A stretch of 64,000 nucleotides of DNA from an uncultured virus (IMG/VR IMGVR_UViG_3300008262_000226) (lineage: Duplodnaviria > Heunggongvirae > Uroviricota > Caudoviricetes), in the IMG/VR virus record IMGVR_UViG_3300008262_000226, positions 62,001 to 126,000 of that record, one strand, 5' to 3'. Both the position numbers and the translations under genes were made by a program. Positions 4,111-62,004 of this stretch are shown here, piece by piece (the first letter of the stretch is position 1; every line of letters begins with the position of its first letter). The notes under the pieces are model-generated. The model was not told where the DNA came from, did no database searches, and was given only the letters and a program-made list of their open reading frames with translations.

Positions 4111-7100
4111 TCAATCAACGTAATACTGACCAGAAACAATTTGCTGAGCACTATTTGTGAAGTCAGCATCTGTTATACCATTTCCACCATTTTCAATTAA
4201 TGTTATTGAAGTATTACCACCAACAATTCTATATGTAATAATGTTGTCGAATGTAATGCCACCAATATCAGCTCCAACAGCTGCTCCATATCCTTGATTT
4301 CCAGCTCCTGGGGTAAATGGTAATCCAGCGATTGTAGCAATACCAGTAGCAGTTCCTTTATTACTTATATTTAAAAGTATATTAAATAAAACTCTGTTGC
4401 CAATTTTTGTATATCTTCCCACTCTTACCGAATAAACTACTCCTAGATCACTTCCACCAAAAGCTATTGAAGGTGTAAATGATCCCTCTTCATAATCATT
4501 CAACAACTCAGAAGTCATGCCAGCATTATTAGAATTAGCAGAGAAGTCAATACCTTTGCCAGATGTTCCGATGATTAGGTTGCCTCTATTGACAGTAACA
4601 TCACCGAGATGTGAGATAGTTAGACCTTGCTGAGGACCAGTGGTGTAGTTATCGGTCGTAGCAAGTGTCATTGCTGTTCCGATGGTATTGTTGTTTACTA
4701 CATAGATACCTGCTTGTGCTTCGTCTGTTGCGTTACCACGGAATGTAATAGCAACTTGTCTAGCAGCACCACCAGTTCCAGCAGCATTACCAAAGTGAAT
4801 GCCACCTTTAACTGTCTTAGCAATACTGAATGTGTTGTTAGCGAGAGATGTGGCAGCATCGTTTGTAAGAGTTAATGCTGCTGAACCTACAGTAGAGAAC
4901 GAAGATGAAATAGCACCAGAAGTGCTTAAACTTGTAAGTGTTCCAACTTGTGTCAAACTGGAAGTAGTAACACCCGCACCCAAACTGAATGAACCAGTTG
5001 AAGGACCAATTTGACTGCCACTAGCAATCAATACGTTACCGATTCTATATTGCTTACCAGTAGCAAGGTCAAAGTTTTCTGTAGATGTGAATGCTGTTGT
5101 GGCATTTACATAAGTTATAGACTTATCGGTGGTTCCTTTAACACGGAAACCTCCACCATCAGCTGTGGTATCTGTAGCACCAGTTGACACAAACGTAGCA
5201 GTGCCAGAAGAACCAGTAACTGGATTTGATAACGTAGCAGTATTATTAGTAATCGAAACAATCGTTGTGCCAGCAGGAACACTTAAACCAGCAGTAGAAA
5301 TGCTAACTGCCATACCAGCAATCAATCCTGTAACAGGTGAAATTGCAGTAATATTAGCACTATTGCTTACGATAGTTGCTGTAAATGTTCTTGCAGAAAC
5401 GTCAGCAAGATCAATCAGTTTATCATCAATACTTAATACATTAGTATTAATTGTTGTTGTGGTTCCATTCACAGTCAAATTACCGCTGACAATTAAGTTG
5501 CCGCCAACGTTTGCGTTTTGTGGAAGAGTAACATCGAAGTTTGCATCTCCACGAATCCAAGTAGCAGTGCCAGAACCAATAACTAACTGGTTGTCACCTG
5601 ATGGTGATGGTGGAGTGTGAGTTACGTTAGTATTGTTGCCGTCAGGTGCTGGTCCGATTAATACATTACCGTTACCAGTAGCACCAGCACCAGCATAATA
5701 ACCAATCGCTACGTTATCTGTTCCAGTTGTATTTCCTTCTAAAGTATTGGATCCAACGCCAACATTTCTTTCGCCAGTTAGTAACCCCGTGAGAGCACTT
5801 CTACCAATACCAATATTATTTTGACCCGTGCTTAGATTGGTCAGTGCTTGATAACCAACAGCAACAGTAGCAGCACCAGAGTTGACTGTCTTAGCAGCTT
5901 CATAACCAATAGCAGTGTTCTGACTACCTGAAGTGTTTGAGTTCAAGCAGTTGAAACCCATTCTGGTGTTGGTAGCAATCGCGTTACCACCTCTACCGAT
6001 TGCGATTGGGTTTGCTCCACCTCCGCGAATGGTGAAGTCAGCATTAACAAAGTCTACAGTTCCATTCAGGTTGACAACATCACCAACAACGTCACCTAAG
6101 TTTGTTGTTCCATTTACAGTTAACCCATTTCTTATGGTTGTCGTTCCAGTTGTAGCACCGATGTTAACCGCAGTGGCAGCACCGAAAGCATTGATTGTTG
6201 TTGCTGTGGTGTTGAAGACAGCAAACGTAGTGCTACCAGTAAGAACGCTGGTGGTAAATGTGGGTGATGTTCCGAATACAGCAACGCCAGTTCCAGTTTC
6301 ATCACTCAAAACACCACGAAGTTGTGCCGAAGTTGTTGAACCAAATACTGATAGGTTGTTGGTTGTGTAAACAACCGTTCCACCAGTTCCAAATCCAACT
6401 GTTGAACCATCAGTTCCACTGAAAGTTAGAGTGTTGTTTGCAGTGAGTGTTATGTTGTTAGCAATCGTTAGAGTTCCACTAACTGTCTGTGAGATTGCTA
6501 GACCGTTGATTGTTGTAGCTGTAGCAGCACCAAGAGTTGGTGTAGTAAATGTTGGGTTGGTAAGTGTTTTGTTTGTGAGTGTTTGTGTCTCCCCTTCAGT
6601 TACCAATCGGTTGGCAACTGAACCATCATAAACTCTCCAGTAACCACCAGATTCAAACCACTGCATCACGCTGTAGGATGAAACAACACCCAAAGCATTG
6701 GTGGTTCTATTGACCTGAACACCAGCATCAACACCAGTTAGGTTTAATCCTTTTCTAAGTTCAATCTGTGCGTCAGCAATAACAAGTGTTTGTGATTCGA
6801 TTGTTGAAGTTGTTCCTGTAACTGTTAAGTTACCAGCGATGGTGATAGTTGAACCATCATCAGAAATAATACTGTTTGTTATCTGTGAGTTACCACTATC
6901 CCATTTAAGTAATCTGTTGCCAGTCAGGTTAGCATTATTTTTGAGTGAGAATGTAGTGCCTGTTAATGTAATTGCAGTTCCAGCTGAATATGTGGTATCG
7001 TTATCTGTTGAACTGATAGTAAAAGTATTTGCTGCAGCGCCAGATCCTCTAGTAACAGTCGTAAAACCACCACCAGTAATATTAATTATTCCAGTTCTGG

Positions 7101-8109
7101 CATTTCCATCTGATTCACCATTTACTTTTAAACTAGTTACAGTGTTTACATATTGCGAATCAATTGTAATAGTATTACCAACCTGAGATATAGATGCAGC
7201 ACCAGTAGTTGTATTAACACCATTTGCTCCTGCTGTAGTTGATCCAGTCGCCGTGGCAAATGTAAAATCACCAGATCCTAATGTTCCTCCAGTTGCTCTC
7301 AACCTAGTTACAGTATCTTGAGAAGAAATAGTAATATCTGTAGGTGTGCCTACAGACTGATTGATTGTTACATTACTTCCAGCAAGAAGCTGCAAATCAC
7401 CAGAGGTATAAATTCCAGCTGCTGTTCCTCTTAGTCTTGTAACAGTATTGACGTAGTTTGCATCAATGGTAATTGTATTTCCAACTTGCGAAATAGCGGC
7501 TGCATTACCACTAACTGCAAAAGTAACATCACCAGAGACTAAATTACCTCCACTTGCTGCAACACGAGTAACAGTATTTGTATCAATGTAACTAGAATTA
7601 ATTGTAATGGCATCACCAGTTCTTGTTAATGTAACGTTTGTTCCTGCTACTAAATTTACATCATCATCAACACCAGCTCCAGAGTTACCACCAGAAGTTA
7701 AACGAATAACTTTAGTTGCTGCGTTACCTCCATCTTGTGCTGAGATAGAATATGTTGTGTTGTTATCTGGAGTTGTTACTGTTCCCCCCAAAGAAATTGC
7801 TGTTCCATTGACAGTAATTGAAGAGTTAACTAGAGCACTATTTGGAATGAAAGTAAATGTATTTGTTGTGCCAGAAATGAAAGAAGATTCAATCGTTTTG
7901 TTTGTTAAAGTTTGATTGGCAGTTAAGTATACATCACCAGGATTATCCCAGATAACAGTTGTTCCATTGGTCTTTAGGTATTGACCAGTAGTTCCTAAGG
8001 TATTATTCGCAACTAAGCCACTACTTGTTAGATCTAAATTGTCACCAGCAACAAGCTCTTCAATTTTTTTTGTTGTTGCATTGACTATTAACGGAAAGCG
8101 ATTTGCCAT
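4111..8109 (-). CDS. Tail fibre-like virion protein, 1332 aa
   Basis: Thr/Gly-rich; QTLTNKT motifs, adhesin-like N-x-AIG repeats, C-terminal GIDFS...DYEEG...YTKIG module. Confidence 0.85.
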   Translation of the reverse strand: MANRFPLIVNATTKKIEELVAGDNLDLTSSGLVANNTLGTTGQYLKTNGTTVIWDNPGDVYLTANQTLTNKTIESSFISGTTNTFTFIPNSALVNSSITVNGTAISLGGTVTTPDNNTTYSISAQDGGNAATKVIRLTSGGNSGAGVDDDVNLVAGTNVTLTRTGDAITINSSYIDTNTVTRVAASGGNLVSGDVTFAVSGNAAAISQVGNTITIDANYVNTVTRLRGTAAGIYTSGDLQLLAGSNVTINQSVGTPTDITISSQDTVTRLRATGGTLGSGDFTFATATGSTTAGANGVNTTTGAASISQVGNTITIDSQYVNTVTSLKVNGESDGNARTGIINITGGGFTTVTRGSGAAANTFTISSTDNDTTYSAGTAITLTGTTFSLKNNANLTGNRLLKWDSGNSQITNSIISDDGSTITIAGNLTVTGTTSTIESQTLVIADAQIELRKGLNLTGVDAGVQVNRTTNALGVVSSYSVMQWFESGGYWRVYDGSVANRLVTEGETQTLTNKTLTNPTFTTPTLGAATATTINGLAISQTVSGTLTIANNITLTANNTLTFSGTDGSTVGFGTGGTVVYTTNNLSVFGSTTSAQLRGVLSDETGTGVAVFGTSPTFTTSVLTGSTTFAVFNTTATTINAFGAATAVNIGATTGTTTIRNGLTVNGTTNLGDVVGDVVNLNGTVDFVNADFTIRGGGANPIAIGRGGNAIATNTRMGFNCLNSNTSGSQNTAIGYEAAKTVNSGAATVAVGYQALTNLSTGQNNIGIGRSALTGLLTGERNVGVGSNTLEGNTTGTDNVAIGYYAGAGATGNGNVLIGPAPDGNNTNVTHTPPSPSGDNQLVIGSGTATWIRGDANFDVTLPQNANVGGNLIVSGNLTVNGTTTTINTNVLSIDDKLIDLADVSARTFTATIVSNSANITAISPVTGLIAGMAVSISTAGLSVPAGTTIVSITNNTATLSNPVTGSSGTATFVSTGATDTTADGGGFRVKGTTDKSITYVNATTAFTSTENFDLATGKQYRIGNVLIASGSQIGPSTGSFSLGAGVTTSSLTQVGTLTSLSTSGAISSSFSTVGSAALTLTNDAATSLANNTFSIAKTVKGGIHFGNAAGTGGAARQVAITFRGNATDEAQAGIYVVNNNTIGTAMTLATTDNYTTGPQQGLTISHLGDVTVNRGNLIIGTSGKGIDFSANSNNAGMTSELLNDYEEGSFTPSIAFGGSDLGVVYSVRVGRYTKIGNRVLFNILLNISNKGTATGIATIAGLPFTPGAGNQGYGAAVGADIGGITFDNIITYRIVGGNTSITLIENGGNGITDADFTNSAQQIVSGQYYVD

Positions 8110-20466: not shown

Positions 20467-20901
20467 CTACACCCCCAAGTGATCTTCGGTGAGAATAAGG
20501 AATTGCATTTGTCTATCCTCACACCAGTCACTTGCGGCTTCCCATTTCGCTTGGTTTTTTAGAAACGTTAGAACCTTGTCTTTGTATACTTTAGTTTGTT
20601 TCTTTGCTGGAGGTGGAGGAGTTGTCTGTTTCTTTGGTTTAATTTCAACAAGATATTTTTTAATTTCATTTGATTTTGTACGAACTTTGATATAGAAGTC
20701 TACATAATAACGATGAACCCTTCCATCAATAGGTGAACGATAAGGTATCACAACTTCCTCACTGCCCCACTCAATGACACTGCTGTTTCTGTCACAGAAT
20801 ATCATAAACTTTCTTTCCCATAACGAACGATAGATTATATTCATAGGGTTACCCCTATACTTCGTGGGATTTATGGGGCGATAAAATCCCGAGTATGCCA
20901 T
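20467..20901 (-). CDS. Head completion nuclease gp4
   Basis: P.KY.G....I.YRSLWE, W.SEE..IPY.SP.D...HRYY.DF, EIKP. Confidence 0.92.
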   Translation of the reverse strand: MAYSGFYRPINPTKYRGNPMNIIYRSLWERKFMIFCDRNSSVIEWGSEEVVIPYRSPIDGRVHRYYVDFYIKVRTKSNEIKKYLVEIKPKKQTTPPPPAKKQTKVYKDKVLTFLKNQAKWEAASDWCEDRQMQFLILTEDHLGV

Positions 20902-36242: not shown

Positions 36243-36315
36243 GCTCCTTTAGCAATCTGGCGAATGCACCGAACTCATAATTCGGCTAAGGTGGGTTCGA
36301 TCCCCTCAAGGAGCA
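36243..36315 (+). tRNA. tRNA with CAT anticodon (elongator Met or Ile2)
   Basis: Acceptor GCTCCTT/AAGGAGC, anticodon arm CCGAA-CTCATAA-TTCGG; G1-C72 pair argues against initiator. Confidence 0.88.
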
Positions 36316-36316
36316 C

Positions 36317-36345
36317 TTGACAGTCATTACGGCACCTGCTATAAT
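36317..36345 (+). promoter_or_regulatory. Consensus sigma70 promoter upstream of tRNA-Leu and cpeT
   Basis: TTGACA-N17-TATAAT with extended -10 TG. Confidence 0.8.
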
Positions 36346-36359
36346 ACTGTCATCATCAC

Positions 36360-36443
36360 GGGGCGGTGGTGGAATCGGTAGACACACCAGACTTAAAATC
36401 TGTTGGGGGCAACCCCGTGGGAGTTCAAGTCTCCCTCGCCCTA
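36360..36443 (+). tRNA. tRNA-Leu(TAA)
   Basis: Anticodon loop CTTAAAA, long variable arm GGGG-GCAA-CCCC, T-arm GGGAG-TTCAAGT-CTCCC. Confidence 0.92.
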
Positions 36444-36475
36444 TTTCCCACTAAATAATTTGTAGTGGGAATGTT

Positions 36476-36742
36476 ATGAAATACACATTATCACAAGCAT
36501 ATGTCTTCTACATGGGAGAAGTTGTGCGAATGTATTTCATACAAAATCTTCCATATACGTTTGATGAGTTACCTCAAATAATCCAAGATCATCCTTCTGT
36601 TCAAACAGAAGCACTTAGTCATCGTGATTATGATGATGAAGATCTTTACAGAGTTTCAAATTATCTTATAATGGAAGAAATGCATCCTTTGATGTTTGAC
36701 TTAGAAATCGAAAATCCTGAATTGTTACCTAAAGATGATTGA
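36476..36742 (+). CDS. Conserved cyanophage hypothetical protein
   Basis: VRMYFI...PYTFDEL...YL..EE.HP. Confidence 0.8.
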   Translation: MKYTLSQAYVFYMGEVVRMYFIQNLPYTFDELPQIIQDHPSVQTEALSHRDYDDEDLYRVSNYLIMEEMHPLMFDLEIENPELLPKDD

Positions 36743-37208
36743 CAAATTTTGTGAATATTTTGAAGGAACATTTGAGAATAAATTGCAAGCAATGTCTTAT
36801 CCGACACAGTTTGCTATGATTGAACTGATTCACGAAAAAATCGATGAAAATCGTTTTCGTTGTATTCAACGTTATTATGTTGATAAAAACGAATATCGTA
36901 GAACAGTTATTGAGGTCATTCCGCAAGAAACTTCAATTCTAGTCAAAAATTATAAAGAAAAAGATGAGTTGACTTATCTTTCTGGGTGTGATATAATGTT
37001 CGAGCAGATAGGTGATGAATTTCACGGCAAAAATCTTTGTAAAACCTGCTTTGTCTCCTGGTCGGGAAAAGAAACCTATCTACAAACACAAAGTATTCTC
37101 GGAAACGGTTACTATCATGTAATTGATAAGGGATACGATATAAATACCGACGAACATATTTGGGGTAGCTTTCACGGGCAATTCCAGTTCGTCAAATCGC
37201 CCTTGTAG
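36735..37208 (+). CDS. cpeT: T-type phycobiliprotein (bilin) lyase, CpcT/CpeT family
   Basis: F..YFEG.F.N..QA...P..FA.I...H, YR, GCD..F, F.G....C, D.G.D......WGS..G.F.F.K. Confidence 0.85.
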   Translation: MIDKFCEYFEGTFENKLQAMSYPTQFAMIELIHEKIDENRFRCIQRYYVDKNEYRRTVIEVIPQETSILVKNYKEKDELTYLSGCDIMFEQIGDEFHGKNLCKTCFVSWSGKETYLQTQSILGNGYYHVIDKGYDINTDEHIWGSFHGQFQFVKSPL

Positions 37209-37270
37209 CTCAGTGGTAGAGCAGCGGTTTTGTAAACCGCTGGTCGTCTGTTCGAATCAGATCGGGGGCT
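37199..37270 (+). tRNA. tRNA-Thr(TGT)
   Basis: Acceptor GCCCTTG/CGGGGGC, anticodon arm GCGGT-TTTGTAA-ACCGC; overlaps the cpeT stop codon. Confidence 0.92.
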
Positions 37271-37290
37271 CTCCGTGTGAAGGAAGTGAT

Positions 37291-37316: not shown

Positions 37317-37363
37317 TTATAAATAACTCAGAAGAAATCTCCATACTACGGGTTACTGAGAAG

Positions 37364-38134
37364 ATGCCATTAACAAGATTAGATAATCTTATTTCTAGTA
37401 AGACTGGTAAATATCTTTATGTTTCACCTGACGACTTTAATGCTACAGATGCCTTAGATAACAGAGGTAATTCTCCTCTAAGACCATTTGTTAGTATTCA
37501 AAGAGCATTTTTAGAAGCGGCAAGATTCTCGTATCTACCTAATGTAGATAATGACAGGTTTGACCAGTTTACAATCATGCTGTCGCCTGGCAATCACTAT
37601 ATTGATAACCGCCCTGGTGTGGAAGATGTTTCTACTCTTCCAATTTTTCAATTTAATCAGGCAACACAAGAGTGGGAAGCAAATACTAATGTAAGCTTCG
37701 ATCTCTCAGACCCAGATAATATTCTCTACAAGTTCAATGGTCGTGATGGTGGCGCAACCATTCCTAGAGGAACTTCTCTTGTTGGAACAGATCTTCGCAG
37801 AACACAAGTTCGTGCTTTATATGTTCCAGATCCTGCTGATCCAGATGTTCCTCGCACAGCTCTCTTTAATGTAACGGGTGGATGCTATTTCTGGCAGTTT
37901 ACCATTCTAGATGGTGATTTAGAAGCAAGTTCGCCATTATATAATGTTGGATCTCCTGTTGGTGTTGGTAAAGTATACACGCAACCTGGCAGCACTACGA
38001 ATTTAGCAATTCCTGAATTCTCTCACCACAAAATGACAAACTTTGTGTTTGCCGACAGAGAGGATCTAGGTTTACTTTACAGAAAGATTGCTCGTGTATT
38101 CAGTGATTATCAACCAGCAATTGATGACGTATAG
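37364..38134 (+). CDS. Giant virion structural/fibre protein, N-terminal part (ends at a frameshift)
   Basis: MPLTRLDNLISSKTGKYLYVSPDDFNATD...NRGNSP.RPF.SIQRA, a conserved cyanophage N-terminus. Confidence 0.85.
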   Translation: MPLTRLDNLISSKTGKYLYVSPDDFNATDALDNRGNSPLRPFVSIQRAFLEAARFSYLPNVDNDRFDQFTIMLSPGNHYIDNRPGVEDVSTLPIFQFNQATQEWEANTNVSFDLSDPDNILYKFNGRDGGATIPRGTSLVGTDLRRTQVRALYVPDPADPDVPRTALFNVTGGCYFWQFTILDGDLEASSPLYNVGSPVGVGKVYTQPGSTTNLAIPEFSHHKMTNFVFADREDLGLLYRKIARVFSDYQPAIDDV

Positions 38135-41100
38135 CTCCTGATGCAGATGAAACAAAGTGGTCTCGTCTTGTAATTCGTGGTCGTGAATTTGATTTCAGGG
38201 TTCAAGAAAATAGAATCGTTGGTCCTCTTTCTGACGCTGTTAGATTAGATGAGGTAACAATTTTAGATTCTAACCCCGCAGGAACAGTTACTGTTAAAGT
38301 AAGAACAAAAATTAATCATGGTTTCTTCCCTGGTCAATACGTTGCAATTTCCAATAATGGATTGAATACTACACTCAATGGTGTATTCAAAGTAACTGCT
38401 ATCAGTCAAACTGATCCAAAAGAATTCGAATATAAAGTTGCAACCACAGCAACTGGTTTAGGATTGATTAGCGGAACTACTTACACTGCAGTATCTTCTC
38501 CATCACTTGACACTAACGCTACCGTACAGGCGGAGGTAGATAGCGTAGAATCAGCATCTCCATACGTCTTCAACGTTTCGATTCGTTCGACATGGGGTAT
38601 TTGCGGTATTTGGGCTGATGGTCGCAAGGCGACTGGTTTCAAATCCATGGTTATCGCCCAGTATACTGGTGTTTCGCTACAGAAAGACGACAGAGCATTC
38701 ATTCGTTACGACGAATTCAGCAACACATGGAACCAGGCACCACTAACTGATGCGTTTGCTACAACTCCTTATCACATCAAGGGAGATGCATATTGGAAGG
38801 ATGATTGGAGAAACTTCCACGTTCGTGCTTCAGATGACTCCTTCATTCAGAACGTTTCGATCTTCGCGGTAGGTTTTGCTGATCACTTCCTGCTTGAGTC
38901 AGGTGGTGACATGTCTATCACCAACTCGAACTCAAACTTTGGTAACACTTCGATGCACTCGAAGGGATACAAAGGTTTTGCATTCTCGCAAGATAAAGGC
39001 GGATACATCACTCATATTGTTCCACCAAAATCTCTTTCTACTCTAAAAAATATTAAGCAACAGTATTATGTTCTGGATGCTCAATTAACTAGAGCTACTT
39101 CTAATCAAAATAGATTATATTTTGGATCTGATGATGCTCGTAGCGCAGAAGATCGCCCAGCAGCATCGATTGGTGGGTATAGAATTGGTGCAAGAAGAAA
39201 TGAAAAATTATTTGTAAAACTAGATACTTCTGCTGCTAAGCAAGCAGAACTTTCTCCATCTGGGTTTAAGAGATGGGTTTCTTCTCTATCCACAATTTCT
39301 CCAACTGGTTCTAGATCTGTAGAAGATATAAGTCGTTTGTATGTAACTAGCACTGTTGGATTTGCTTCAAATGATTTTGTTAAAGTTGATAACGAATTTT
39401 TCAGAATTACTGCAGTTAATCCTTCTAGTTTAAATGTAGTAAGAGCACAATTGTCATCTGCAGCATCTGATCATGTTAATGCATCTATTGTTACAAAATA
39501 TATTCAAAACGCTGTAGCGACTACTGTTCTTAATGAAGAAGTTGATGCTACTGAGACAGTATTTGACGTTCAGAGCACTACTGGTCTTGCTCCAAATATG
39601 TTTGCTAGTATTACTAATAGTCAAACATCTATTAATGAAACAGTTAGAATTGTAACTATTGAGGGTGCTAGTCAAATTACAGTTCAGAGGGGTCAGTTAG
39701 GAACTATTGCTGTTGCTCAACCACAGACATCTTTAGTTACTCTAACAACACTTTCAAATACATATTCTCCTGCTTCTCCTAGTGTAACAACAACTCTCAC
39801 TGAGAGATATCCAAGAATTACTCCTGCATCAAATGCATCAGAAAGAGATTATAATCTTGCACAAGATGCTGCGAATCTAATTGATTCAAATAAAACATTC
39901 ATTCAAGCAGAAGCATTTGGATATGTTTTACAGAAATATCCATATCTTCAAAATATTTCTTATGTAAACCCAAATATCACTGCGGAAACTGGTAGATATC
40001 GTGATGCCAGCAATTTGATTAAAGCAAATCGCCAAGAAATTATTGATTATGCTTTCACTCAAATGCAAGTTGCATTCCCTTCATTCGTTGTTCCAAACAA
40101 TGAAAATGATAAGTGTAAGCGTGATATTGGATATATTGTAGATGCAATCGCAAACGATTTATATGATGGTGGAAATGCAAGCATCATTGAGGCAACCAAA
40201 GCATATTTTGACAATAACGGATCTTTAATTACAAATGGTGTTTTGGGTGAGCAAACTCAATCGGTATTTGCTTTCAATAGAGCAAGAGATTGGGCTAAGA
40301 AAGCAATTTCAAACCTTCTAGGAAATACTTCTCTACTTGATGTAATTAGTATCACTTCATCTGGAACAACTGTCACCGTAACGACAGGAAATCCACATAA
40401 TTTAGAAGCAGGTAATAAAGTAACAGTTGGCGGTGCAACTCAAACTGCATATAATGGAAAAGTAACTGTTCTTGCTTCTGGATTAACTGCTACCCAATTT
40501 AGATACACTGCATTATCTGCTCCTTCTGCGTCACCAGCTACTGGTGCATATTATGTTTCGACTGTAACTATTGATCCATCTAATGATTCTATTGTTGCTG
40601 GTAGATATAAGGATGCGAGCAACTTAGTTAAATCAAATCGTCAAGAAATTATTGATAGAGCTGCAGCTAAAGTTGCTATTGATTTTCCTGATTTTTATTA
40701 TCCAGGTGATAGTCAATCAAATGCAACTTCTCGTTTTAAGGATTCGTATCGTCTAATTCAACAAAACAGACAAGAAATTATTGATAGAGCAGCTGCCGAA
40801 ATCGCTGTTCAGCATCCAGATTTTTATTATCCAAATGATGCTCAAACTACAAGCACATCGAGATATAAAGATGCTTATCGTTTGATCCAATTAAATAGAC
40901 AAGAAATTATTAATGGAGCTTATGCTCAAATTGCTATTGATTATCCTGGATTTACAAATCCAAATCCAACAAAGTGTCAAAGAGACATTGGATATTTTAT
41001 TGATGCAATTTCTCTTGATATTTCAATTGGATCTGGTAATGTTTATTCGCGCAAGTTCACTCAGCAGTATTTTACTGTTAGTGGAGCTCCAATTAGTGAT

Positions 41101-44100
41101 GGATTACTAGGAGAAGAAACACAATCGATTGCTGCATTTAATAAAGCTCGTGATTTGATGAAATCGGCAATCACAAATCAATTAACGGTAAAAGATTTAA
41201 CTGTTACTGTAGATCCTATTACTGGTTCTAATACAAATGTAAATTCTTGTTCTAATGTTCAACTTGCAATTACTAACTTAAGCGCAATTGTTACAAATGC
41301 TATTGGTGCTGGTAGTATTTCTGGTTTACCACCTGAAAATGTAGGAACTGTTCCTGCTGGAGAAACAAAATGCAAGAGAGATATTGGCATGTTTATTGAT
41401 GCTATTTCTCTTGATATTGTTCAGGGAGGTGGTAATGTTTATGCGCGTAAATTCATTCAACAGTATTTTAATCAGGCAGGAACTGCTTGGATAACTGGCG
41501 GATTACAAGGTGAAGAAGCTCAGTCTGTAACTGCATTTAACAAAGCAAGAGATATAATGAAACTTGCTGTAGCAAACCAGTTATATGTAAAAGATCTTTC
41601 TATTACTGCTGATCCTGCTCCTGGTTCTAATTATGGAACTTCTGGATCTAATACTGATAATAATTTAAATCCTGCTCTATGTTCAGATGTTCAAAATGCA
41701 ATTACAACTTTAACTTCTATTGTTACTGCTAGAGTAACTGCTGGAAATCTTACTGGATTACCTGCAGAAACACAAGCAACCATTCCAAATGGAGAAGCTA
41801 AGTGTAAGCGCGACATTGGTTATATTGTAGATTCTATTGCCCAAGATTTATTCTGGGGTGGAAATGAATTTACTGTTGGTGCAGTAAGAGAATATTTTAC
41901 TCTAGCAGGTGTTCCTATTTCTAATGGATTAGTTAATGAAGAGAGTCAAACAGTAGTTGCTTTTAATGCTGCAAAAGATGTTGTTAAAAAAGCAGTTACA
42001 AATCAACTTTATTCTAAAAATTTAAATCTTTCTTATGGTCCAGCAAATGCTGGTGGATCGGGTGGAAATGTAACATACAATGCATCTGGTAATGGTGCTA
42101 CTTGCGTAGATGTTCAGACCACAGTAGAAAACTTATTTGCAATTGCTACTAGTGTTGTAGCGTCTGGAACTTTAGCAAATCTTCCTCCAGTAACTAATGG
42201 ATCTTACGATTGTGCTAATGTTAGAAATAGTATAGATACATTAACTGCAATTTTAACAACTGCGTTAGCATCAGGAAATCTATCTTCTTTACCTGAAGAG
42301 AATCCAGGATCATGGAGCACAGTTAGTGAGAGTAGTAAGTGTAAGCGTGATATTGGATATATTGTAGAGGCAGTTACTTCTGATCTACGTTTGGGTGGAA
42401 ATGAAAATACTATCAACGCAGCAGAAGCATACTATACAGCTGTTCCTCTCAACACTGACACTGTAGACGGAAGACAAGATGGATTTACTCTAGATTATAT
42501 TGAAAATGAGAGACCAGAAACTCTAGATGCATACAACTATGTAAGAAATTTGGCTATCTCAGCAATGAGAAACCACAATACTTATATCAATAATGCTTCC
42601 ACTACTTTAAATTCTCCAATCGTTACAGTTCCAAGCACAATTGGTCTTGCTATTGGAATGCGTGTTAGAAGTGTCAATGCTATTCCAACAGGTCCTTCTG
42701 ATACAGTATCATTTACTTCTACTATTCCAGATACAGCATACATCAAAAAAATTGGTGATGGTCAAAATGGATTGGCATCGAATCAAATAGAATTAGGAAG
42801 ACTAGGAAGCAGATTTGATGATGGAGAAACTGTAAGTGCTCAGGGAACATCGTCTACTGTAAAATTATACGTTGAATTAAATCAAGGATCTTGGGCAACA
42901 ACAATTGCTCCTTCAACCGATAGCGCAGTTATTCAAGATTATAATTACACGGCTGCTGGCGATCCTTCAACTGGATCTCCAGGAGGAGAGTGCGCTACTG
43001 TTGCTAATTCAATTGTTAATTATTTCAATATTATTTCAACAATTATCAACAATGGTGTTGGTGTTGTTCCTAGAGTTGCTTCTTCTCTTAACACAGCATC
43101 CCTCGCTCAAAGAGGATCTCTATTCACTTTAACTGAATATGATAGCAATGGAAATCCAACATCAAACCCCCACCAGTTAGAAACTGGAACTCCAGTAAGA
43201 CTTGTTCCATCTCCTAGACCAGGAACTAATCCAGACAAGAGACTGGTTAGACTTCCAAAAGGATTTGATACAAATACTATTTACTATGTAATTGCTCCTG
43301 GCAGAAGAACAGATCCTTTTGATTATTCTAATTCTATCGGATTTAATGGCGCAAATCAGCAAACATTGATGCTTGCTACTAGTGAAGAGAATGCTGCCGC
43401 AGGTATTTACATTTATTCTTCCGAGACTGATAGTGTAGATCCAGATGTAAATATTGATGTTTATCAGTATGTTCTAGATCTTAAGTATGATCTACATCAA
43501 TATGAAACTAAAATTGCTAATAATAGCAGCACCGAATTTGAAACCACTAGACCACATATTTTTGACAAACCAGCTGATGGAGTTGAACCTCAGTTAGTGT
43601 TCTTTAGAGTTGGAAGTGATATTATTGGATCATCGTTGCCTACTCTATCTTCTAATTTTGGTGGAACTGTTATTTCAGAAAAGCAACAGTATTATGTTCG
43701 TTATGTAAGTTCCAGAAGATTTACGATTCACCAAACATTTACTGATGCTAGAGATAATATTAATCCTGTAACTTTCCAACCAGGAAGCACCGCAGTATTC
43801 TACGCATTTGCTAGCAAGAGAAGATCTCCTCTCAAATATGATCCTGTTGTAGGTGGTGCAAATGATGGTTGCTGGTATTTAAACACCTTAACTGCAGGAA
43901 ATGAAATTGTTCCTAGATTGAAGTTTAGTGATTATGCAGGAAGAATCAGAACAACTGATACTTACTTTGAACGTATTGAAGATAATAGAACGGAAGATGA
44001 TCGTGTATATAGATTCCGTTATGTAATTCCTAAGAATCTTAAAACCGTTCGTGATCCTCTACGTGGATTTGTGTTTAAGATTAGAACAGATGAAAAGAGA

Positions 44101-47100
44101 AGATTGCTCCCCCAGAAAATATTACTGAAACCAACTGCATCTGGTTCTTCACTTGCCACAATTAATGCTCCTGTCACTGGTGAAAGACTAGGTTTAACTG
44201 TATCTGAACTATACAGTCAAACTGGTAAAGATTCTACTTACGATCCAGGTCCTCAGGGTAATCCTAAGAGAATCGAAACAGATTCTAAGATTTCTTTCAC
44301 AGTTCAATCTGCCAGAAAGAGAACTATTCAAAATAGAGATTATTTAGAATTAACTGTATTTGATATTGGTGTAGATGCCGAAGCATATAAGACTAAACTC
44401 TTCACAACGGTTAAAATTTCTGCTCCTGAGGGTGGAGATGGATCCTTTATTGAAAGTATTCCAAATTCTAATAACACAAATAAAATTACTTGGGATGGTA
44501 ATAGCAAGGGAACTGCATATGTTCACGCATATTTTTCTTATGAAAACGATTACTACATGATTCTTAAGGATCTCACTGGTAATTCTGAAATTAAGTATGA
44601 TAGTAATACAGTTACTACCTTTACTCAAGGATCTGTAACTGCTACTTTACTTGATCAACCAAATGGCGGAAGATCTGACATTTCTAATTTCCTTTATGTT
44701 GTGGAAGGAGCAAACGTTTACACTATGACTCCTGGCGACACTTTAAATGATGATCAAGGAGTGTCGTATACAATTGCTGAAGTAGAAGATTCTTCTGAAC
44801 TTGAAAGCACTTTCTACATTTTTGATATTGATACTATCCGTAGAAGAATTGCTGGTCAACAAGATGGTGTGTATTATCTCACATGTTTACGTGGAGATAT
44901 TAGACCTTTCCCAACTGGTTCTGGTGTTGGTGAAAACTTCAGAAACTTCAGATTCTCTCAACCAGTATCTAAGTTATATCCAGAATTCTATAAGAACGAC
45001 CCAGAATGGTATAAGGGAATAAGTGCAGCAACTGCCACGTTACTTGATCCACCACCAACAATTTCTGCGGCAGACAACTATATCCATGGTTTAGTTACGG
45101 TTAATGATTCCAAAGGATCTGTAACTAGAGAAACCGTTCTTGATTTTGTTGCTGATCCTGGAACAGGAAATTATACATATTCTGGAAATAATACAATTCA
45201 AGCTCAACCAGGATCAGCTTCTGCTGGATCTGAAGGCAGATTGATTCCTATTTCTGGCGATTCTCCATATCCAACAGAAGGAAAACTTTATATAGAACTT
45301 CGTAGACCATCTATTGCGCGTTCTGGCAACCATACCTTTGAATACCTTGGTTTCGGTCCTGGTAACTACTCAACTGGTTTCCCTGCGCGTCAGGAAGTGG
45401 TCTTAACTGATGTTCAAGACTTCTATGCTCAAGCTAAGCGTGAAGACGCTGGTATCGTCTTCTACACGGGTCTGAACTCCAATGGTGACCTCTACATTGG
45501 TAATCGCAAGATCAATGCTATTACTGGTGAAGAAACATTCCTAGAAAGAGCGGCATTAGTTGAATCTGAGGATGAAGGAGATAGTATTGGCAATCTTGTA
45601 ACTACTTTTGATACTCCAGTTACATTTAATCAAATCATCACAATTAATGGTGGTGATGGATCTGATGAAAGTTTCTTCAATTCTCCAGTTGTAATTAATA
45701 ATGCAACTTCTTTCGGAACGGTAGAAAATTATCCTTCACTTAAGATTGTTACTGGAGAAGGAACTCCTGTTGGATTTGATCAGTATTTAGAATATAATAC
45801 TGTTGGTCAAAGAACAGGTGATATCGTCATTCATCAAAACAGAATTACTGCAGCTGTATTTGATTTCAATCCAAGAGGAACACAAGATTATACTATTAGA
45901 ACTTCCATATCAAATATCACTCCAGATTTTAACAATACATTTGGGCAAACTACAGGATTTACTTCTCAAATTTTAGCAACTAATTTTGGAACTAGAGATC
46001 CGTTGAAGTCAGGTGATATGCTATTGAAGGGAGATCAAACTTCCTTTACTGGATCGTTAGGTTGGATATATGCTAATGATTACATTGCTATAACTAACAG
46101 ATCTGATGGTCAAACAACACCTCAAGTTGTAGGTATTCAGGGTAATGCTACTGGAACATTTGCTAGAATTAACTGGAATACTGGTATTAATAATGGTTCT
46201 CTAAGTATTAATAGTTCTACTCAAATTAGAATTACTAATGCTACTGGAACATTAGCAGTTACAAATGGTGTTTGGAATATTGTTCCAGGAAGTTTTAACG
46301 CTTCTAACAATTATATTGATGTTATTCTGAACTCTAATCTTTCTGTGTATCCAGTTAATCTTAATAATGGTAAAGGATACCCAGTTGATCAAGTAGCACA
46401 ACCAAATATTGCAATCGCTCGTTCGTCTTCTCAATTTAAGGAGTGGGGTGTTCTAGGTGCAGAAGCAATTAGAACAGAAACTTCTTCGATTGGAAATTAC
46501 AAGTTAGGTATTAATACCGTTGCTCGTTCTCCACATTCTGCATATCTGACAGCATTTGTTTCTCCAGAAACAACGCCAAGAGCAAATCTTGATGTTGTCG
46601 GTAATGCATTTATCAGTGGTAAGGCAATTAATTCTTATTTAACTGAGCAAACATCTACGAAGACAGAAACTAATTTAGACAATGCTTTGGTTGTTGGTGG
46701 CAATAGTTTGAGTCTAAATGGTCCTGCTACATTCCGTGTTCAGACAACGAATAATGGTAGAGTAGGAATTAATACTTCTCTAGTTGATGTCGTAAATCCA
46801 TCCAACGTTCTTGATAGAAATTTTGTAGTTGTAGGTAATGCTAGAATTACTTCAGATTTTGAATTAACAGGTGACCTTCAAGTTAATGGTGGTGATTTAA
46901 CTACAACTTCTCCATCTTTCAATTTATTAAATACTTCTTCTCCAGACATTTTAAACTTTGCTGGTGGTGCAGAAATATTTAATATTGGTCACACGACAAC
47001 TGGAGCTCAAACAATTAATGTCGGCAATGCTGCTTCATCTAGTTATATTCAAGTTGGTAACGTTGCTACAGAATCTGTTTTCAGAATTCATAGAAATTCA

Positions 47101-49380
47101 TTAAACGCAATTGTTGATATTGCTTCCGTTGCTGATACTGTTGGTAATAGTTGTGAAGTTCAAATTGGCGGAGCATGGAACAATACTGCTAGCTTCACTG
47201 AAATACGCACCAGACAAACATTAATTGCTGGAGAATTAGAATTTGGAACTAGGTATGCTTCTGGAACTAGTCAGTCTAGAATTTTCACTCAGACTAGAGT
47301 TCTGAATGCATTTGATGGTGATCAAACCAATACAGTTAATCTTGCTACTAATGCAACTACCTTCAACCTCGGATCTCTTGGTGGTAATACTACCATTAGA
47401 AATACTCTTAATGTTCTTGCAAGTGAAAACGTTAATGGTAATATTAGACTGAATGGTGGATTAAATGCAGGTATTGTTGAAATTGTAAGAGGAAGATTCT
47501 CTACAACACCAGTCGCACACAACGTAGGAAATCTCGCAAACACCAACATTGATTATTATCAGTATAATACAACTGGTAGAATAATTGATACTCAAGGTGT
47601 TGCACAATGGGGAGGAACTTCGTTCTTGGTTGCTGGTGGTCAAATTGCTGGTATTGATACTATTACAAATACTGGCGGAACAAATAGAAATCCTGGAACA
47701 TATAGTTTCATTCCAGCAACAGGTGGAACTGGAACGGGTGCTACATTTACTATTAGCATTGCTAACGATAAAACTCTTAATATTGATATTGTTAGCCCTG
47801 GATCTGGATATACTGATAATGACCTATTAATAATTACTGCTGCACAAATTGGTGGTGGAACTGGTGCTGGCAATCTTACATTCCAAGTAAATGGTGTAAA
47901 TGCTGGTGGATCTAGCTATTATCTACCAATTTCTACTCCTGGTGTGTTTGATTTCAGAGTTGGTGATCTTATTCTCATAGATCGTGGTGATGCAGCAACA
48001 CCAGATAGTGTTGTTGTTTCTGGTGGTGGAAGCATTACTGGATTAAGAAATCAAGCAAACAGTGAGATTGTTCGTGTTACTGGATTAACAAACTTAAGTA
48101 ATCCAAATGATCCAGAAGGTTTCCGAGTTCAAGTTATTCGTGGTCAGGAAGGAACACAGGTAAGAACAGATCACCCACAAGGTTGTGTGCTTGCTAAATT
48201 AATTAAACAAACAAATGCAAGTTATATTACAGGATCTGATCTTAATAATGATGGAGTTTTAGATACACCTGTGACGGGTATTTCAAATTCCTCTGTCAAT
48301 GTTAATATTGGTGTTGCTGAATTTGGTGGAGTTCTTACTACCAGAGACTTCTTGAGATTATCTGGTTCAGAAATCGTTGGTATTGCTAGAACGGTATCCA
48401 CTGATATTCAAGTTCTTGAAGTTAACGATGGATCTTTAACACCCGCTACAGTATTCAAAGTAGAATCTACTACTGGTAATACAATTATTGGTGGTAATCT
48501 TGGGGTTGGAACTGGATTTAATAAATTTACAGTTACTGGATCATCTGGAAACACTAATATTGCTGGAACATTAACAACAGAGAACACATTAACTATTAAT
48601 GGATCTACTATTCCTAATACTCAATTCTTTACTATTACTAACGGTGGTGCTACAGGAACTCCATTGAGAACTACATTCCAGATTGATACTGCGAATGGTA
48701 ATGTTAGAATGAATGGTGGAAACATCAACATCTATGGAACTGATGGAACAACACCTAGACTAACGTTTGTCAATTCTTCGGGTGACTTTACCACATATGG
48801 TTCTTTCTCTGCTCTTGGAACGGGTGCTAGCACTTTTGGTGGTGATATTGTTGCTGCAGGTGATTTAACAATTAATGGTGGTGATATCACTGTTAATTCT
48901 GGAGGTAATCCTATTTTTGAGGTAAATAGTAATGGTTCTATGCGTATTGCTGGAATCAATAATTACTTTACTCAAACGGGTGGTAGAAGATGGGAGTATG
49001 CCGATGGATTTGTCATTAATGCTTTGGCAAACGTTAATTATTTTGTTAATGCTACACAAAATACGCTATTTAAACTTCCTCAAAATGCTCTAATTGGTGA
49101 TATGATTCGTATTATAGATATTGGTGGAAACTTAAATTATAATTTAAGTTTGATTGTAAGAGCTCCTGACAACGTAAAAGTTCAGAACGCATCTGATAAT
49201 ACTGCAAGAAATATTGCTTCTGGTATTCCAGTTTCTGATTTTGTTGGATATAATGGTGGTGAAATGGTTGTTCAAACTCCATACGCTGCATTTGCACTAG
49301 TTTTTGCAGGATCTACAACTCCAGATGGCAACACTGCTGTTCCATCATCTATCGCTGGTTGGTATTTAATCGAAGTCTAA
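38131..49380 (+). CDS. Giant virion structural/fibre protein, remainder; contains five nested phycobiliprotein-like domains
   Basis: Frame open from 38128 (IAPDADETKW...EFDFRVQENRIVGPLSD) into the 3672-aa ORF; ends GWYLIEV. Confidence 0.85.
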   Translation: MAPDADETKWSRLVIRGREFDFRVQENRIVGPLSDAVRLDEVTILDSNPAGTVTVKVRTKINHGFFPGQYVAISNNGLNTTLNGVFKVTAISQTDPKEFEYKVATTATGLGLISGTTYTAVSSPSLDTNATVQAEVDSVESASPYVFNVSIRSTWGICGIWADGRKATGFKSMVIAQYTGVSLQKDDRAFIRYDEFSNTWNQAPLTDAFATTPYHIKGDAYWKDDWRNFHVRASDDSFIQNVSIFAVGFADHFLLESGGDMSITNSNSNFGNTSMHSKGYKGFAFSQDKGGYITHIVPPKSLSTLKNIKQQYYVLDAQLTRATSNQNRLYFGSDDARSAEDRPAASIGGYRIGARRNEKLFVKLDTSAAKQAELSPSGFKRWVSSLSTISPTGSRSVEDISRLYVTSTVGFASNDFVKVDNEFFRITAVNPSSLNVVRAQLSSAASDHVNASIVTKYIQNAVATTVLNEEVDATETVFDVQSTTGLAPNMFASITNSQTSINETVRIVTIEGASQITVQRGQLGTIAVAQPQTSLVTLTTLSNTYSPASPSVTTTLTERYPRITPASNASERDYNLAQDAANLIDSNKTFIQAEAFGYVLQKYPYLQNISYVNPNITAETGRYRDASNLIKANRQEIIDYAFTQMQVAFPSFVVPNNENDKCKRDIGYIVDAIANDLYDGGNASIIEATKAYFDNNGSLITNGVLGEQTQSVFAFNRARDWAKKAISNLLGNTSLLDVISITSSGTTVTVTTGNPHNLEAGNKVTVGGATQTAYNGKVTVLASGLTATQFRYTALSAPSASPATGAYYVSTVTIDPSNDSIVAGRYKDASNLVKSNRQEIIDRAAAKVAIDFPDFYYPGDSQSNATSRFKDSYRLIQQNRQEIIDRAAAEIAVQHPDFYYPNDAQTTSTSRYKDAYRLIQLNRQEIINGAYAQIAIDYPGFTNPNPTKCQRDIGYFIDAISLDISIGSGNVYSRKFTQQYFTVSGAPISDGLLGEETQSIAAFNKARDLMKSAITNQLTVKDLTVTVDPITGSNTNVNSCSNVQLAITNLSAIVTNAIGAGSISGLPPENVGTVPAGETKCKRDIGMFIDAISLDIVQGGGNVYARKFIQQYFNQAGTAWITGGLQGEEAQSVTAFNKARDIMKLAVANQLYVKDLSITADPAPGSNYGTSGSNTDNNLNPALCSDVQNAITTLTSIVTARVTAGNLTGLPAETQATIPNGEAKCKRDIGYIVDSIAQDLFWGGNEFTVGAVREYFTLAGVPISNGLVNEESQTVVAFNAAKDVVKKAVTNQLYSKNLNLSYGPANAGGSGGNVTYNASGNGATCVDVQTTVENLFAIATSVVASGTLANLPPVTNGSYDCANVRNSIDTLTAILTTALASGNLSSLPEENPGSWSTVSESSKCKRDIGYIVEAVTSDLRLGGNENTINAAEAYYTAVPLNTDTVDGRQDGFTLDYIENERPETLDAYNYVRNLAISAMRNHNTYINNASTTLNSPIVTVPSTIGLAIGMRVRSVNAIPTGPSDTVSFTSTIPDTAYIKKIGDGQNGLASNQIELGRLGSRFDDGETVSAQGTSSTVKLYVELNQGSWATTIAPSTDSAVIQDYNYTAAGDPSTGSPGGECATVANSIVNYFNIISTIINNGVGVVPRVASSLNTASLAQRGSLFTLTEYDSNGNPTSNPHQLETGTPVRLVPSPRPGTNPDKRLVRLPKGFDTNTIYYVIAPGRRTDPFDYSNSIGFNGANQQTLMLATSEENAAAGIYIYSSETDSVDPDVNIDVYQYVLDLKYDLHQYETKIANNSSTEFETTRPHIFDKPADGVEPQLVFFRVGSDIIGSSLPTLSSNFGGTVISEKQQYYVRYVSSRRFTIHQTFTDARDNINPVTFQPGSTAVFYAFASKRRSPLKYDPVVGGANDGCWYLNTLTAGNEIVPRLKFSDYAGRIRTTDTYFERIEDNRTEDDRVYRFRYVIPKNLKTVRDPLRGFVFKIRTDEKRRLLPQKILLKPTASGSSLATINAPVTGERLGLTVSELYSQTGKDSTYDPGPQGNPKRIETDSKISFTVQSARKRTIQNRDYLELTVFDIGVDAEAYKTKLFTTVKISAPEGGDGSFIESIPNSNNTNKITWDGNSKGTAYVHAYFSYENDYYMILKDLTGNSEIKYDSNTVTTFTQGSVTATLLDQPNGGRSDISNFLYVVEGANVYTMTPGDTLNDDQGVSYTIAEVEDSSELESTFYIFDIDTIRRRIAGQQDGVYYLTCLRGDIRPFPTGSGVGENFRNFRFSQPVSKLYPEFYKNDPEWYKGISAATATLLDPPPTISAADNYIHGLVTVNDSKGSVTRETVLDFVADPGTGNYTYSGNNTIQAQPGSASAGSEGRLIPISGDSPYPTEGKLYIELRRPSIARSGNHTFEYLGFGPGNYSTGFPARQEVVLTDVQDFYAQAKREDAGIVFYTGLNSNGDLYIGNRKINAITGEETFLERAALVESEDEGDSIGNLVTTFDTPVTFNQIITINGGDGSDESFFNSPVVINNATSFGTVENYPSLKIVTGEGTPVGFDQYLEYNTVGQRTGDIVIHQNRITAAVFDFNPRGTQDYTIRTSISNITPDFNNTFGQTTGFTSQILATNFGTRDPLKSGDMLLKGDQTSFTGSLGWIYANDYIAITNRSDGQTTPQVVGIQGNATGTFARINWNTGINNGSLSINSSTQIRITNATGTLAVTNGVWNIVPGSFNASNNYIDVILNSNLSVYPVNLNNGKGYPVDQVAQPNIAIARSSSQFKEWGVLGAEAIRTETSSIGNYKLGINTVARSPHSAYLTAFVSPETTPRANLDVVGNAFISGKAINSYLTEQTSTKTETNLDNALVVGGNSLSLNGPATFRVQTTNNGRVGINTSLVDVVNPSNVLDRNFVVVGNARITSDFELTGDLQVNGGDLTTTSPSFNLLNTSSPDILNFAGGAEIFNIGHTTTGAQTINVGNAASSSYIQVGNVATESVFRIHRNSLNAIVDIASVADTVGNSCEVQIGGAWNNTASFTEIRTRQTLIAGELEFGTRYASGTSQSRIFTQTRVLNAFDGDQTNTVNLATNATTFNLGSLGGNTTIRNTLNVLASENVNGNIRLNGGLNAGIVEIVRGRFSTTPVAHNVGNLANTNIDYYQYNTTGRIIDTQGVAQWGGTSFLVAGGQIAGIDTITNTGGTNRNPGTYSFIPATGGTGTGATFTISIANDKTLNIDIVSPGSGYTDNDLLIITAAQIGGGTGAGNLTFQVNGVNAGGSSYYLPISTPGVFDFRVGDLILIDRGDAATPDSVVVSGGGSITGLRNQANSEIVRVTGLTNLSNPNDPEGFRVQVIRGQEGTQVRTDHPQGCVLAKLIKQTNASYITGSDLNNDGVLDTPVTGISNSSVNVNIGVAEFGGVLTTRDFLRLSGSEIVGIARTVSTDIQVLEVNDGSLTPATVFKVESTTGNTIIGGNLGVGTGFNKFTVTGSSGNTNIAGTLTTENTLTINGSTIPNTQFFTITNGGATGTPLRTTFQIDTANGNVRMNGGNINIYGTDGTTPRLTFVNSSGDFTTYGSFSALGTGASTFGGDIVAAGDLTINGGDITVNSGGNPIFEVNSNGSMRIAGINNYFTQTGGRRWEYADGFVINALANVNYFVNATQNTLFKLPQNALIGDMIRIIDIGGNLNYNLSLIVRAPDNVKVQNASDNTARNIASGIPVSDFVGYNGGEMVVQTPYAAFALVFAGSTTPDGNTAVPSSIAGWYLIEV
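39865..43060 (+). repeat. Five nested phycobiliprotein-like repeats (segments A, B, C)
   Basis: 5x DA..LI..N...I....A......P; 5x KC(K/Q)RDIG; 5x C..V...I..L..I. Confidence 0.8.
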
Positions 49381-61662: not shown

Positions 61663-62004
61663 ATGAAACAGGATTACGAAGTATTATACTTTCAAAATTT
61701 CATAGAAGAATCTGTAAAATCTTTAGGTAAACCTGCAATTTACCTCAGATCTTATGGGTGGAACAACAGCACAGACATTCAGAAAATCAATGATTCAATG
61801 GATGTTTATAGATCCATGCTTCCAGTTGACATGTTTAATGCACTTCATGATTCTGAATTTGTTTTTCTTTTACTAGAAGATATGGAGGAAGCAATTCAAT
61901 TTTGTGAAGATACATTTCCAAAAGATCAAGCAAGTTGTGAGAAAGAATTTTATATTCATTGCTCGATAATCAACGAGCAGGGTCAAACGATATATTCAAA
62001 TTAA
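61663..62004 (+). CDS. Hypothetical protein
   Basis: 113-aa ORF in the operon. Confidence 0.75.
   Translation: MKQDYEVLYFQNFIEESVKSLGKPAIYLRSYGWNNSTDIQKINDSMDVYRSMLPVDMFNALHDSEFVFLLLEDMEEAIQFCEDTFPKDQASCEKEFYIHCSIINEQGQTIYSN

Follow-up and report, generated by a model that had tools for sequence, protein, structure and literature searches.

Nesting of the kind described here has its closest precedent in SI3, a region of the RNA polymerase of cyanobacteria (RpoC2, beta-prime). SI3 is made of recursively nested sandwich-barrel hybrid motifs, and in a recent survey of 2.7 million domains it is put forward, with six levels, as the most complex example (PMC13114784). We analyzed a giant tail-fiber gene from an uncultured member of the Caudoviricetes. 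The gene lies in a 64,000-nucleotide stretch of DNA (the window), which is positions 62,001 to 126,000 of IMG/VR record IMGVR_UViG_3300008262_000226, a 126-kb viral contig that was judged to be 67% complete. The main frame of the gene, P0001 (window 38362-49380, + strand), encodes 3672 amino acids and matches PHROG 4527 (phrog_4527, labelled 'short tail fiber protein') with an E-value of 0. At residues 497-1570 it carries an array of three types of segments, which we call A, B, and C. We consider it quite likely that this region (approximately) forms five phycobiliprotein-like globin domains, each of which is interrupted by the next.

The segment array and the fold of its unit

A motif scan of the translated P0001 found five segments of each type, arranged as A A B A A A B C B C B C C B C. 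This reproduces the order reported in an original prediction, which a model made from the DNA letters and a list of open reading frames. A segments begin at residues 497, 543, 746, 789, and 832; B segments (motif C[KQ]RDIG) are at 585, 872, 1004, 1148, and 1327; and C segments (motif CxxV[QRA]) are at 963, 1107, 1248, 1284, and 1544. The positions that had been proposed for the outermost pieces also hold, as the cysteines of B1 and C1 are encoded at nucleotides 42340 and 42991 and A1 starts near 39850. The five copies of each segment type can be aligned, and the DNA repeats are 60-85% identical. The order can be parsed as A1(A2 B2(A3(A4(A5 B5 C5)B4 C4)B3 C3)C2)B1 C1. Only 273 of the 756,756 possible arrangements of five copies each of A, B, and C are balanced nests (3.6e-4 by chance).

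In this parse, the outermost domain 1 would comprise the helix pair A1 (window 39850-39951, residues 497-530), B1 (42334-42576, residues 1325-1405), and the last helix C1 (42982-43071, residues 1541-1570). These features and the ones that follow are all on the + strand. Domain 2 would comprise A2 and B2 (39988-40326, residues 543-655) and a last helix, C2 (42202-42300, residues 1281-1313), that comes about 630 residues after B2. Then there are three A segments in a row, A3, A4, and A5 (40597-40956; residues 746-779, 789-822, and 832-865). A5 is followed by B5 and C5 (40969-41337; residues 870-942 and 960-992), and these three form the contiguous innermost domain 5. Nesting would pair A4 with B4 and C4 (41365-41769; residues 1002-1075 and 1104-1136) and A3 with B3 and C3 (41797-42192; residues 1146-1218 and 1245-1277).

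We modeled residues 485-1585 with AlphaFold2, as a monomer of 1101 residues and with an alignment of 30 rows. The mean predicted local distance difference test (pLDDT) was 80.9 and the predicted template modelling score (pTM) was 0.60. In the model, A consists of two helices, B of two long helices with a short one between them, and C of a single helix, so in the globin core of phycobiliproteins the segments correspond to helices A-B, E-F-G, and H, respectively. The two beta-rich inserts that had been placed in B-C loops are present in the model, each between a B and its C. The first is in the B2-C2 loop, with strands at model residues 177-249 (window 40342-40560, residues 661-733). The second is in the B1-C1 loop, with strands at model residues 874-1021; its main sandwich is at 922-1021 (window 42577-42876, residues 1406-1505).

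When we compared the whole model to the PDB with Foldseek, nothing was found at E ≤ 0.001. Foldseek's rows for phycobiliproteins had a probability of 1.00 and weak E-values, so we used VIA-align. In the model, the helical core is globin-like and superposes on solved phycobiliproteins, as a member of this family should. Each A piece has two helices, and where phycobiliproteins have an N-terminal X-Y hairpin, through which the alpha-beta monomer is formed, the alignments that start at model residue 319 or 26 borrow a helix from the neighboring shell. A search of the ESM Atlas gave no usable match.

Sequence comparisons also lead to phycobiliproteins. The whole of P0001 matches the Pfam family PF00502 (Phycobilisome protein) with 46.4 bits (cut-off 22.2, E = 5.4e-12), and 9 of 13 single copies of the domain match it at E ≤ 0.01. 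A profile built from those 13 diverse copies matched 155 PDB sequences at E ≤ 1 (best 2.4e-6), and the best 60 of these 155 are phycobiliproteins throughout. In a phmmer search against PDB sequences, 'GeAKCkRDIGY' aligned with the Cys-84 site of phycocyanin alpha (E = 0.023). The unit is a phycobiliprotein-like domain, with a fold that is shared with the host's light-harvesting proteins. The original prediction is supported as regards the nesting and missed this identity. It had also suggested that nesting would hide the domains from linear searches with hidden Markov models (HMMs), and this is partly right: PF00502 covers just two stretches for the five domains, and domain 5 by itself scores 18.7 bits, which is under the cut-off, but the family does match the protein as a whole. 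Most copies escape linear domain annotation, for which nesting would be an explanation.

Pairing of the segments

In alignments of the model to phycobiliprotein chains, domain 2 is discontinuous. It extends from model residue 26 or 40 to 819, with A2, B2, and C2 all aligned, and it encloses domain 5 at 346-498. Domain 2 is a split domain with a domain of the same family inserted within it; for domain 1, the support comes from complex prediction. Long-range pairing of A1 with B1 and C1 had been proposed from the DNA alone, and when A1 (residues 485-536) and B1-C1 (residues 1320-1576) were given as the inputs, the predicted complex scored 0.91, as compared to 0.01 for the best of three controls. 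(Of 157 solved complexes, 116 reached the mark that we used for these predictions, as did 2 of 215 mismatched pairs.) The runs agreed on at least 77% of contacts, and the pLDDT of the partner was at least 73. A1 docks on B1-C1 and contacts helices E and G as well as the C1 helix, at model residues 1060-1067. Because A1 and B1-C1 are the halves of one fold, this prediction may pass by likeness to solved phycobiliproteins.

The same kind of nesting is found across homologs, and its depth varies. We parsed strings of segments, as identified by refined segment HMMs, with the grammar D -> A D* B D* C. Balanced nests were obtained for 75 of 121 proteins, with depths of 3, 4, 5, 6, and 10 in 3, 26, 12, 20, and 14 proteins, respectively. 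Each of the parsed proteins has as many A as B and C segments (3 to 15 of each type), and the balanced strings from these proteins and from the loci that follow include A10(BC)7AA(BC)5 and (AB)5C5. Among 80 loci that were fetched by the conserved N-terminus of the protein, 39 parse as balanced nests. A profile of the whole domain was also tried as the tokenizer; it parsed fewer strings (25/121 and 19/142), and we dropped it as too crude.

Homologs of other depths differ from P0001 by two separate pieces. Depth-4 homologs are without 43 residues in the A run (model 281-323) and 133 residues in the BC run (model 459-591). Depth-6 homologs have 43 more residues after model residue 280 and about 140 more after 737. 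One insert of 159 residues at 737 is a whole domain within the B3-C3 loop.

Similarity and covariation give the same pairing. In P0001, the Mantel correlation between the similarities of the A copies and those of the B copies is 0.93 if they are paired as nested and 0.01 if they are paired sequentially. For the top 30 pairs between A columns and B or C columns, the corrected mutual information is 0.228 with nested pairing, 0.104 with sequential pairing, and 0.04 with random pairing. Of the top 30 covarying pairs, 10 are near contacts that were predicted for A1/B1-C1 (versus 4 and 3 in the comparisons; the background is 5%). Taken together, the parses of homologs, the indels, and the covariation suggest five nesting levels, in which shells 3 and 4 would be paired accordingly. 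The original proposal of domains within domains is thus supported by structure prediction, the A1/B1-C1 complex, the grammar of homologs, the two-piece indels, similarity, and covariation.

Several results weigh against nesting or against its full depth. Neither shell 3 nor shell 4 was observed as a folded unit, and none of the 100 alignments listed spans them. Complex prediction cannot discriminate which A partners with which B-C. Of the 121 strings, 46 fail to parse, mostly because they are one C short or have one extra B; we read these as HMM misses, which is unproven. The Mantel signal between A and C is weak (fraction 0.11-0.13 in P0001, P0004, P0046, and P0081). For arrays of the form (AB)5C5, the Mantel rank of nested pairing across five loci was 1-21 out of 120, and that of sequential pairing was 9-44 out of 120. 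An AlphaFold2 model of one of these arrays (from L071, with a 9-row alignment) was poor, with a mean pLDDT of 48.7 and a pTM of 0.25. Finally, our model of P0001 is monomeric, whereas fibers are usually oligomers.

Bilins, other readings, and the shape of the array

All 874 B segments contain the motif C..D, in most cases as KCxRD. Similarly, 817 of 817 C segments have a cysteine, and 765 of 779 motif-bearing A segments have an aspartate. KCxRD aligns with the Cys-82/84 bilin site of PDB chains, with both the attachment-site cysteine and the Arg-Asp pair in place. By arithmetic, the cysteine of the C segment (model residue 479) would correspond to beta-153 or beta-158, as model residue 498 aligns with residue 172 or 177 of the chains. 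Bilin binding by the fiber is a possibility.

We doubt, on balance, that the domains are true biliproteins, with a bilin on one or both of the conserved cysteines and a fiber that absorbs or senses light. The C-segment cysteine would be loaded by the adjacent phage CpeT or by host lyases. This idea is about function, and it is compatible with the nested architecture. It is favored by the invariance of both cysteines and their match to bilin sites. It is also favored by cpeT: among the 48 loci whose sequence reaches 5 kb or more upstream, 36 have cpeT ahead of the fiber gene on the same strand, and cpeT adjoins the homologous genes in S-RSM4 and S-PM2 as well. T-type lyases act on Cys-153/155 of beta subunits, according to excerpts of two reports (PMC10452541, PMC2327270). 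However, the synteny of T4-like phages is conserved anyway, and two of the four genomes with a completeness of 90% or more have the fiber domain without cpeT.

The domain and cpeT are both present in P-HM2 and S-PM2 and both absent from P-SSM2. Adsorption of P-HM2 and S-PM2 is light-dependent, and P-SSM2 adsorbs in the dark (PMC6628666). The presence of the domain and cpeT fits these adsorption phenotypes, but with three phages this is an anecdote. Also, P-SSM2 has bilin-synthesis genes (as stated in an excerpt of PMC1079782) but no such domain. A sister subfamily with tandem domains, which is described below, is without the C-segment cysteine and sometimes without the B cysteine, and we found no bilin reductase in this 67%-complete record. 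Instead of carrying bilins, the invariant cysteines might link shells through disulfides. (In beta subunits, a long distance separates the two bilin sites, so a disulfide within a domain seems unlikely.)

A broader claim, that the tail fibers of cyanomyoviruses are light-absorbing or light-sensing biliproteins with bilins on both invariant cysteines and with phage CpeT serving the Cys-153/155-like site, seems to us more doubtful still. If it is true, then it would explain the role of phage cpeT, which is described as unresolved in an excerpt of PMC3037559, and why S-PM2 and P-HM2 adsorb only in the light. The invariant cysteines and the adjacent cpeT make the purpose of phage cpeT and light-only adsorption experimentally addressable.

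The other two alternatives concern which pieces fold together. Tail fibers are commonly trimers, so the A pieces of one chain might complete the B-C pieces of another (three-dimensional domain swapping), and the nesting would be between chains. Equal counts, paired indels, and covariation would look identical in that case, and A1 does dock on B1-C1 as a separate chain. However, the model folds as a monomer (with the mean pLDDT given above) and builds domain 2 from one chain, and every nest has a contiguous innermost domain, so we consider swapping to be improbable. Least likely, and by our estimate very unlikely, is that there is no nesting and that the runs of A hairpins and of B-C units are separate tandem arrays whose members fold with adjacent parts of the sequence: a plain tandem subfamily does exist and shells 3 and 4 were not directly seen, but every parsed protein has equal counts, the two-piece indels preserve this balance, domain 2 is discontinuous in the model, and a lone B-C unit would be two helices short of the six-helix core.

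We therefore return to nesting within a single chain. The six helices of the core would be divided among the three pieces, with helices A and B in A, helices E, F, and G in B, which opens with KCxRD, and helix H in C, which has a cysteine at its beginning. A whole domain may be inserted in the A-B loop, which is the site of the PB-loop of ApcE, or in the B-C loop. The chain would run outward via the A pieces to a contiguous domain at the tip and then return via the B-C pieces. With its two ends thus at the base, the array would project from the fiber as a stalk. An out-and-back stalk would follow from the topology; it may be a rod, and it may act as a spacer or for display in a fiber that is attached to the baseplate. 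The small beta domains in two of the loops are probably binding modules. Evolution would alter the length of the stalk through the gain or loss of shells, so that nesting would provide a way to lengthen or shorten a stalk while its two ends are kept together at the base.

Relatives, surroundings, and known systems

Using tblastn, we found the region in 293 phage records, all from cyanophages, with labels such as tail fiber, baseplate wedge, or structural protein. A profile search found 1441 representatives of protein clusters at E ≤ 1e-3, which are mainly giant proteins with up to 35 matching stretches. By our count, 105 of 120 homologs among those listed already have Pfam tags in the databases. 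A search for stand-alone forms with a single domain gave five small proteins, three of them on contigs no longer than about 1.4 kb.

The sister subfamily (such as P0134 and P0141) has plain tandem A-B-C' units with a period of about 160 amino acids. Its final helix is free of cysteine, and in some segments the B cysteine is gone as well. The segment HMMs parse just 29 of 142 new cluster representatives, because many of these are members of the tandem subfamily with a C' helix that the C model misses.

In 8 of the 80 loci, the array is (AB)5C5, which is a nest that is built at the B-C loop only (L071:10820-13651, L056, L061, L062, L069, L074, L076, and L089). The best match of the window's B1 is the first B of this array (132, versus at most 72 for others), and the best match of C1 is its last C (66, versus at most 48). 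The outer shell is therefore the same in both types, but the loop at which it holds the nest differs between them. Arrays of this type have four C helices in tandem, each with a cysteine, and the motif of their inner B segments is DCxDD, not KCxRD.

The genome around the fiber gene is that of a T4-like cyanomyovirus; genes in the window include psbA, speD, thyX, phoH, gp32, baseplate, gp5, and tail-collar genes. Sequencing runs that contain this stretch are labelled as lake or freshwater metagenomes. The fiber gene is split in this record (window 37358-38400). An N-terminal frame (37358-38134, + strand) starts with MPLTRL and stops at 38134, and the main frame resumes near 38200. The near-identical contigs L011-L013 and contigs from three coded runs have about 121 extra bases at the split and are otherwise free of mismatches, and the short (gapped) form was seen in none of the compared contigs. 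The split is probably an assembly artifact or a rare variant. The intact gene would code for about 4045 amino acids. The N-terminal parts of the protein have no sequence relatives in the PDB.

Directly upstream of the fiber gene is cpeT (36735-37208, + strand; phrog_488, E = 5e-39). Its product matches the Pfam family PF06206 (CpeT/CpcT) with 84.5 bits (cut-off 21), so it is a homolog of CpeT/CpcT-type bilin lyases, with a predicted activity. Transfer RNA (tRNA) genes flank cpeT (window 36243-37271): Met at 36243, Leu at 36360, and Thr at 37199-37271. The layout in S-RSM4 is comparable: its homologous fiber gene is preceded by cpeT, tRNAs, and an HNH gene. The complete phage genome that is the source of L071 (G004) contains two nearby cpeT-like genes, at 106168-106614 and 108151-108591. 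Elsewhere in the window, there are five clustered tRNA genes (His, Thr, Gln, Trp, and Arg) at its start (24-395), a frame of 1332 amino acids on the - strand (4111-8109) with no Pfam match at E ≤ 1e-5, and, between replication and tail genes, a TnsA-like endonuclease domain (PF08722, E = 1.8e-22) at 20467-20901 on the - strand.

Giant structural proteins of T4-like cyanophages (PHROG 4527, 529, and 5342) are homologous to P0001 and are annotated merely as tail, fiber, or structural proteins. Nests are thus found in cultured phages as well: p091 of S-PM2 parses as ABC AAAA(BC)4, and the 'short tail fibre' homolog of S-RSM4 parses as AABAAAABCBCBCBABC(C)CBC. In literature searches, which left most subscription journals uncovered, we found no account of the fold or of nesting in cyanophage structural proteins.

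If our reading is correct, then a light-harvesting fold of the host has been recruited as a building block of phage tail fibers and assembled by recursive self-insertion. The domain is about 14-19% identical to the beta subunits of phycobiliproteins (phycocyanin, phycoerythrin, and cryptophyte beta chains; PF00502). Unlike these, it appears to have no N-terminal X-Y hairpin of its own and its copies are nested in one another, and it is in a virion fiber instead of an antenna. ApcE, the core-membrane linker, resembles the phage array in that its PB-loop is inserted at the same B-E site. However, ApcE has one loop insert, with no second domain of the same kind and no recursion. The array is like SI3 in that a domain family is inserted into its own copies, level upon level. 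SI3 is beta-rich and uses one insertion site, whereas the phage array is all-alpha, uses two insertion sites, reaches a parsed depth of 10, and is part of a phage fiber.

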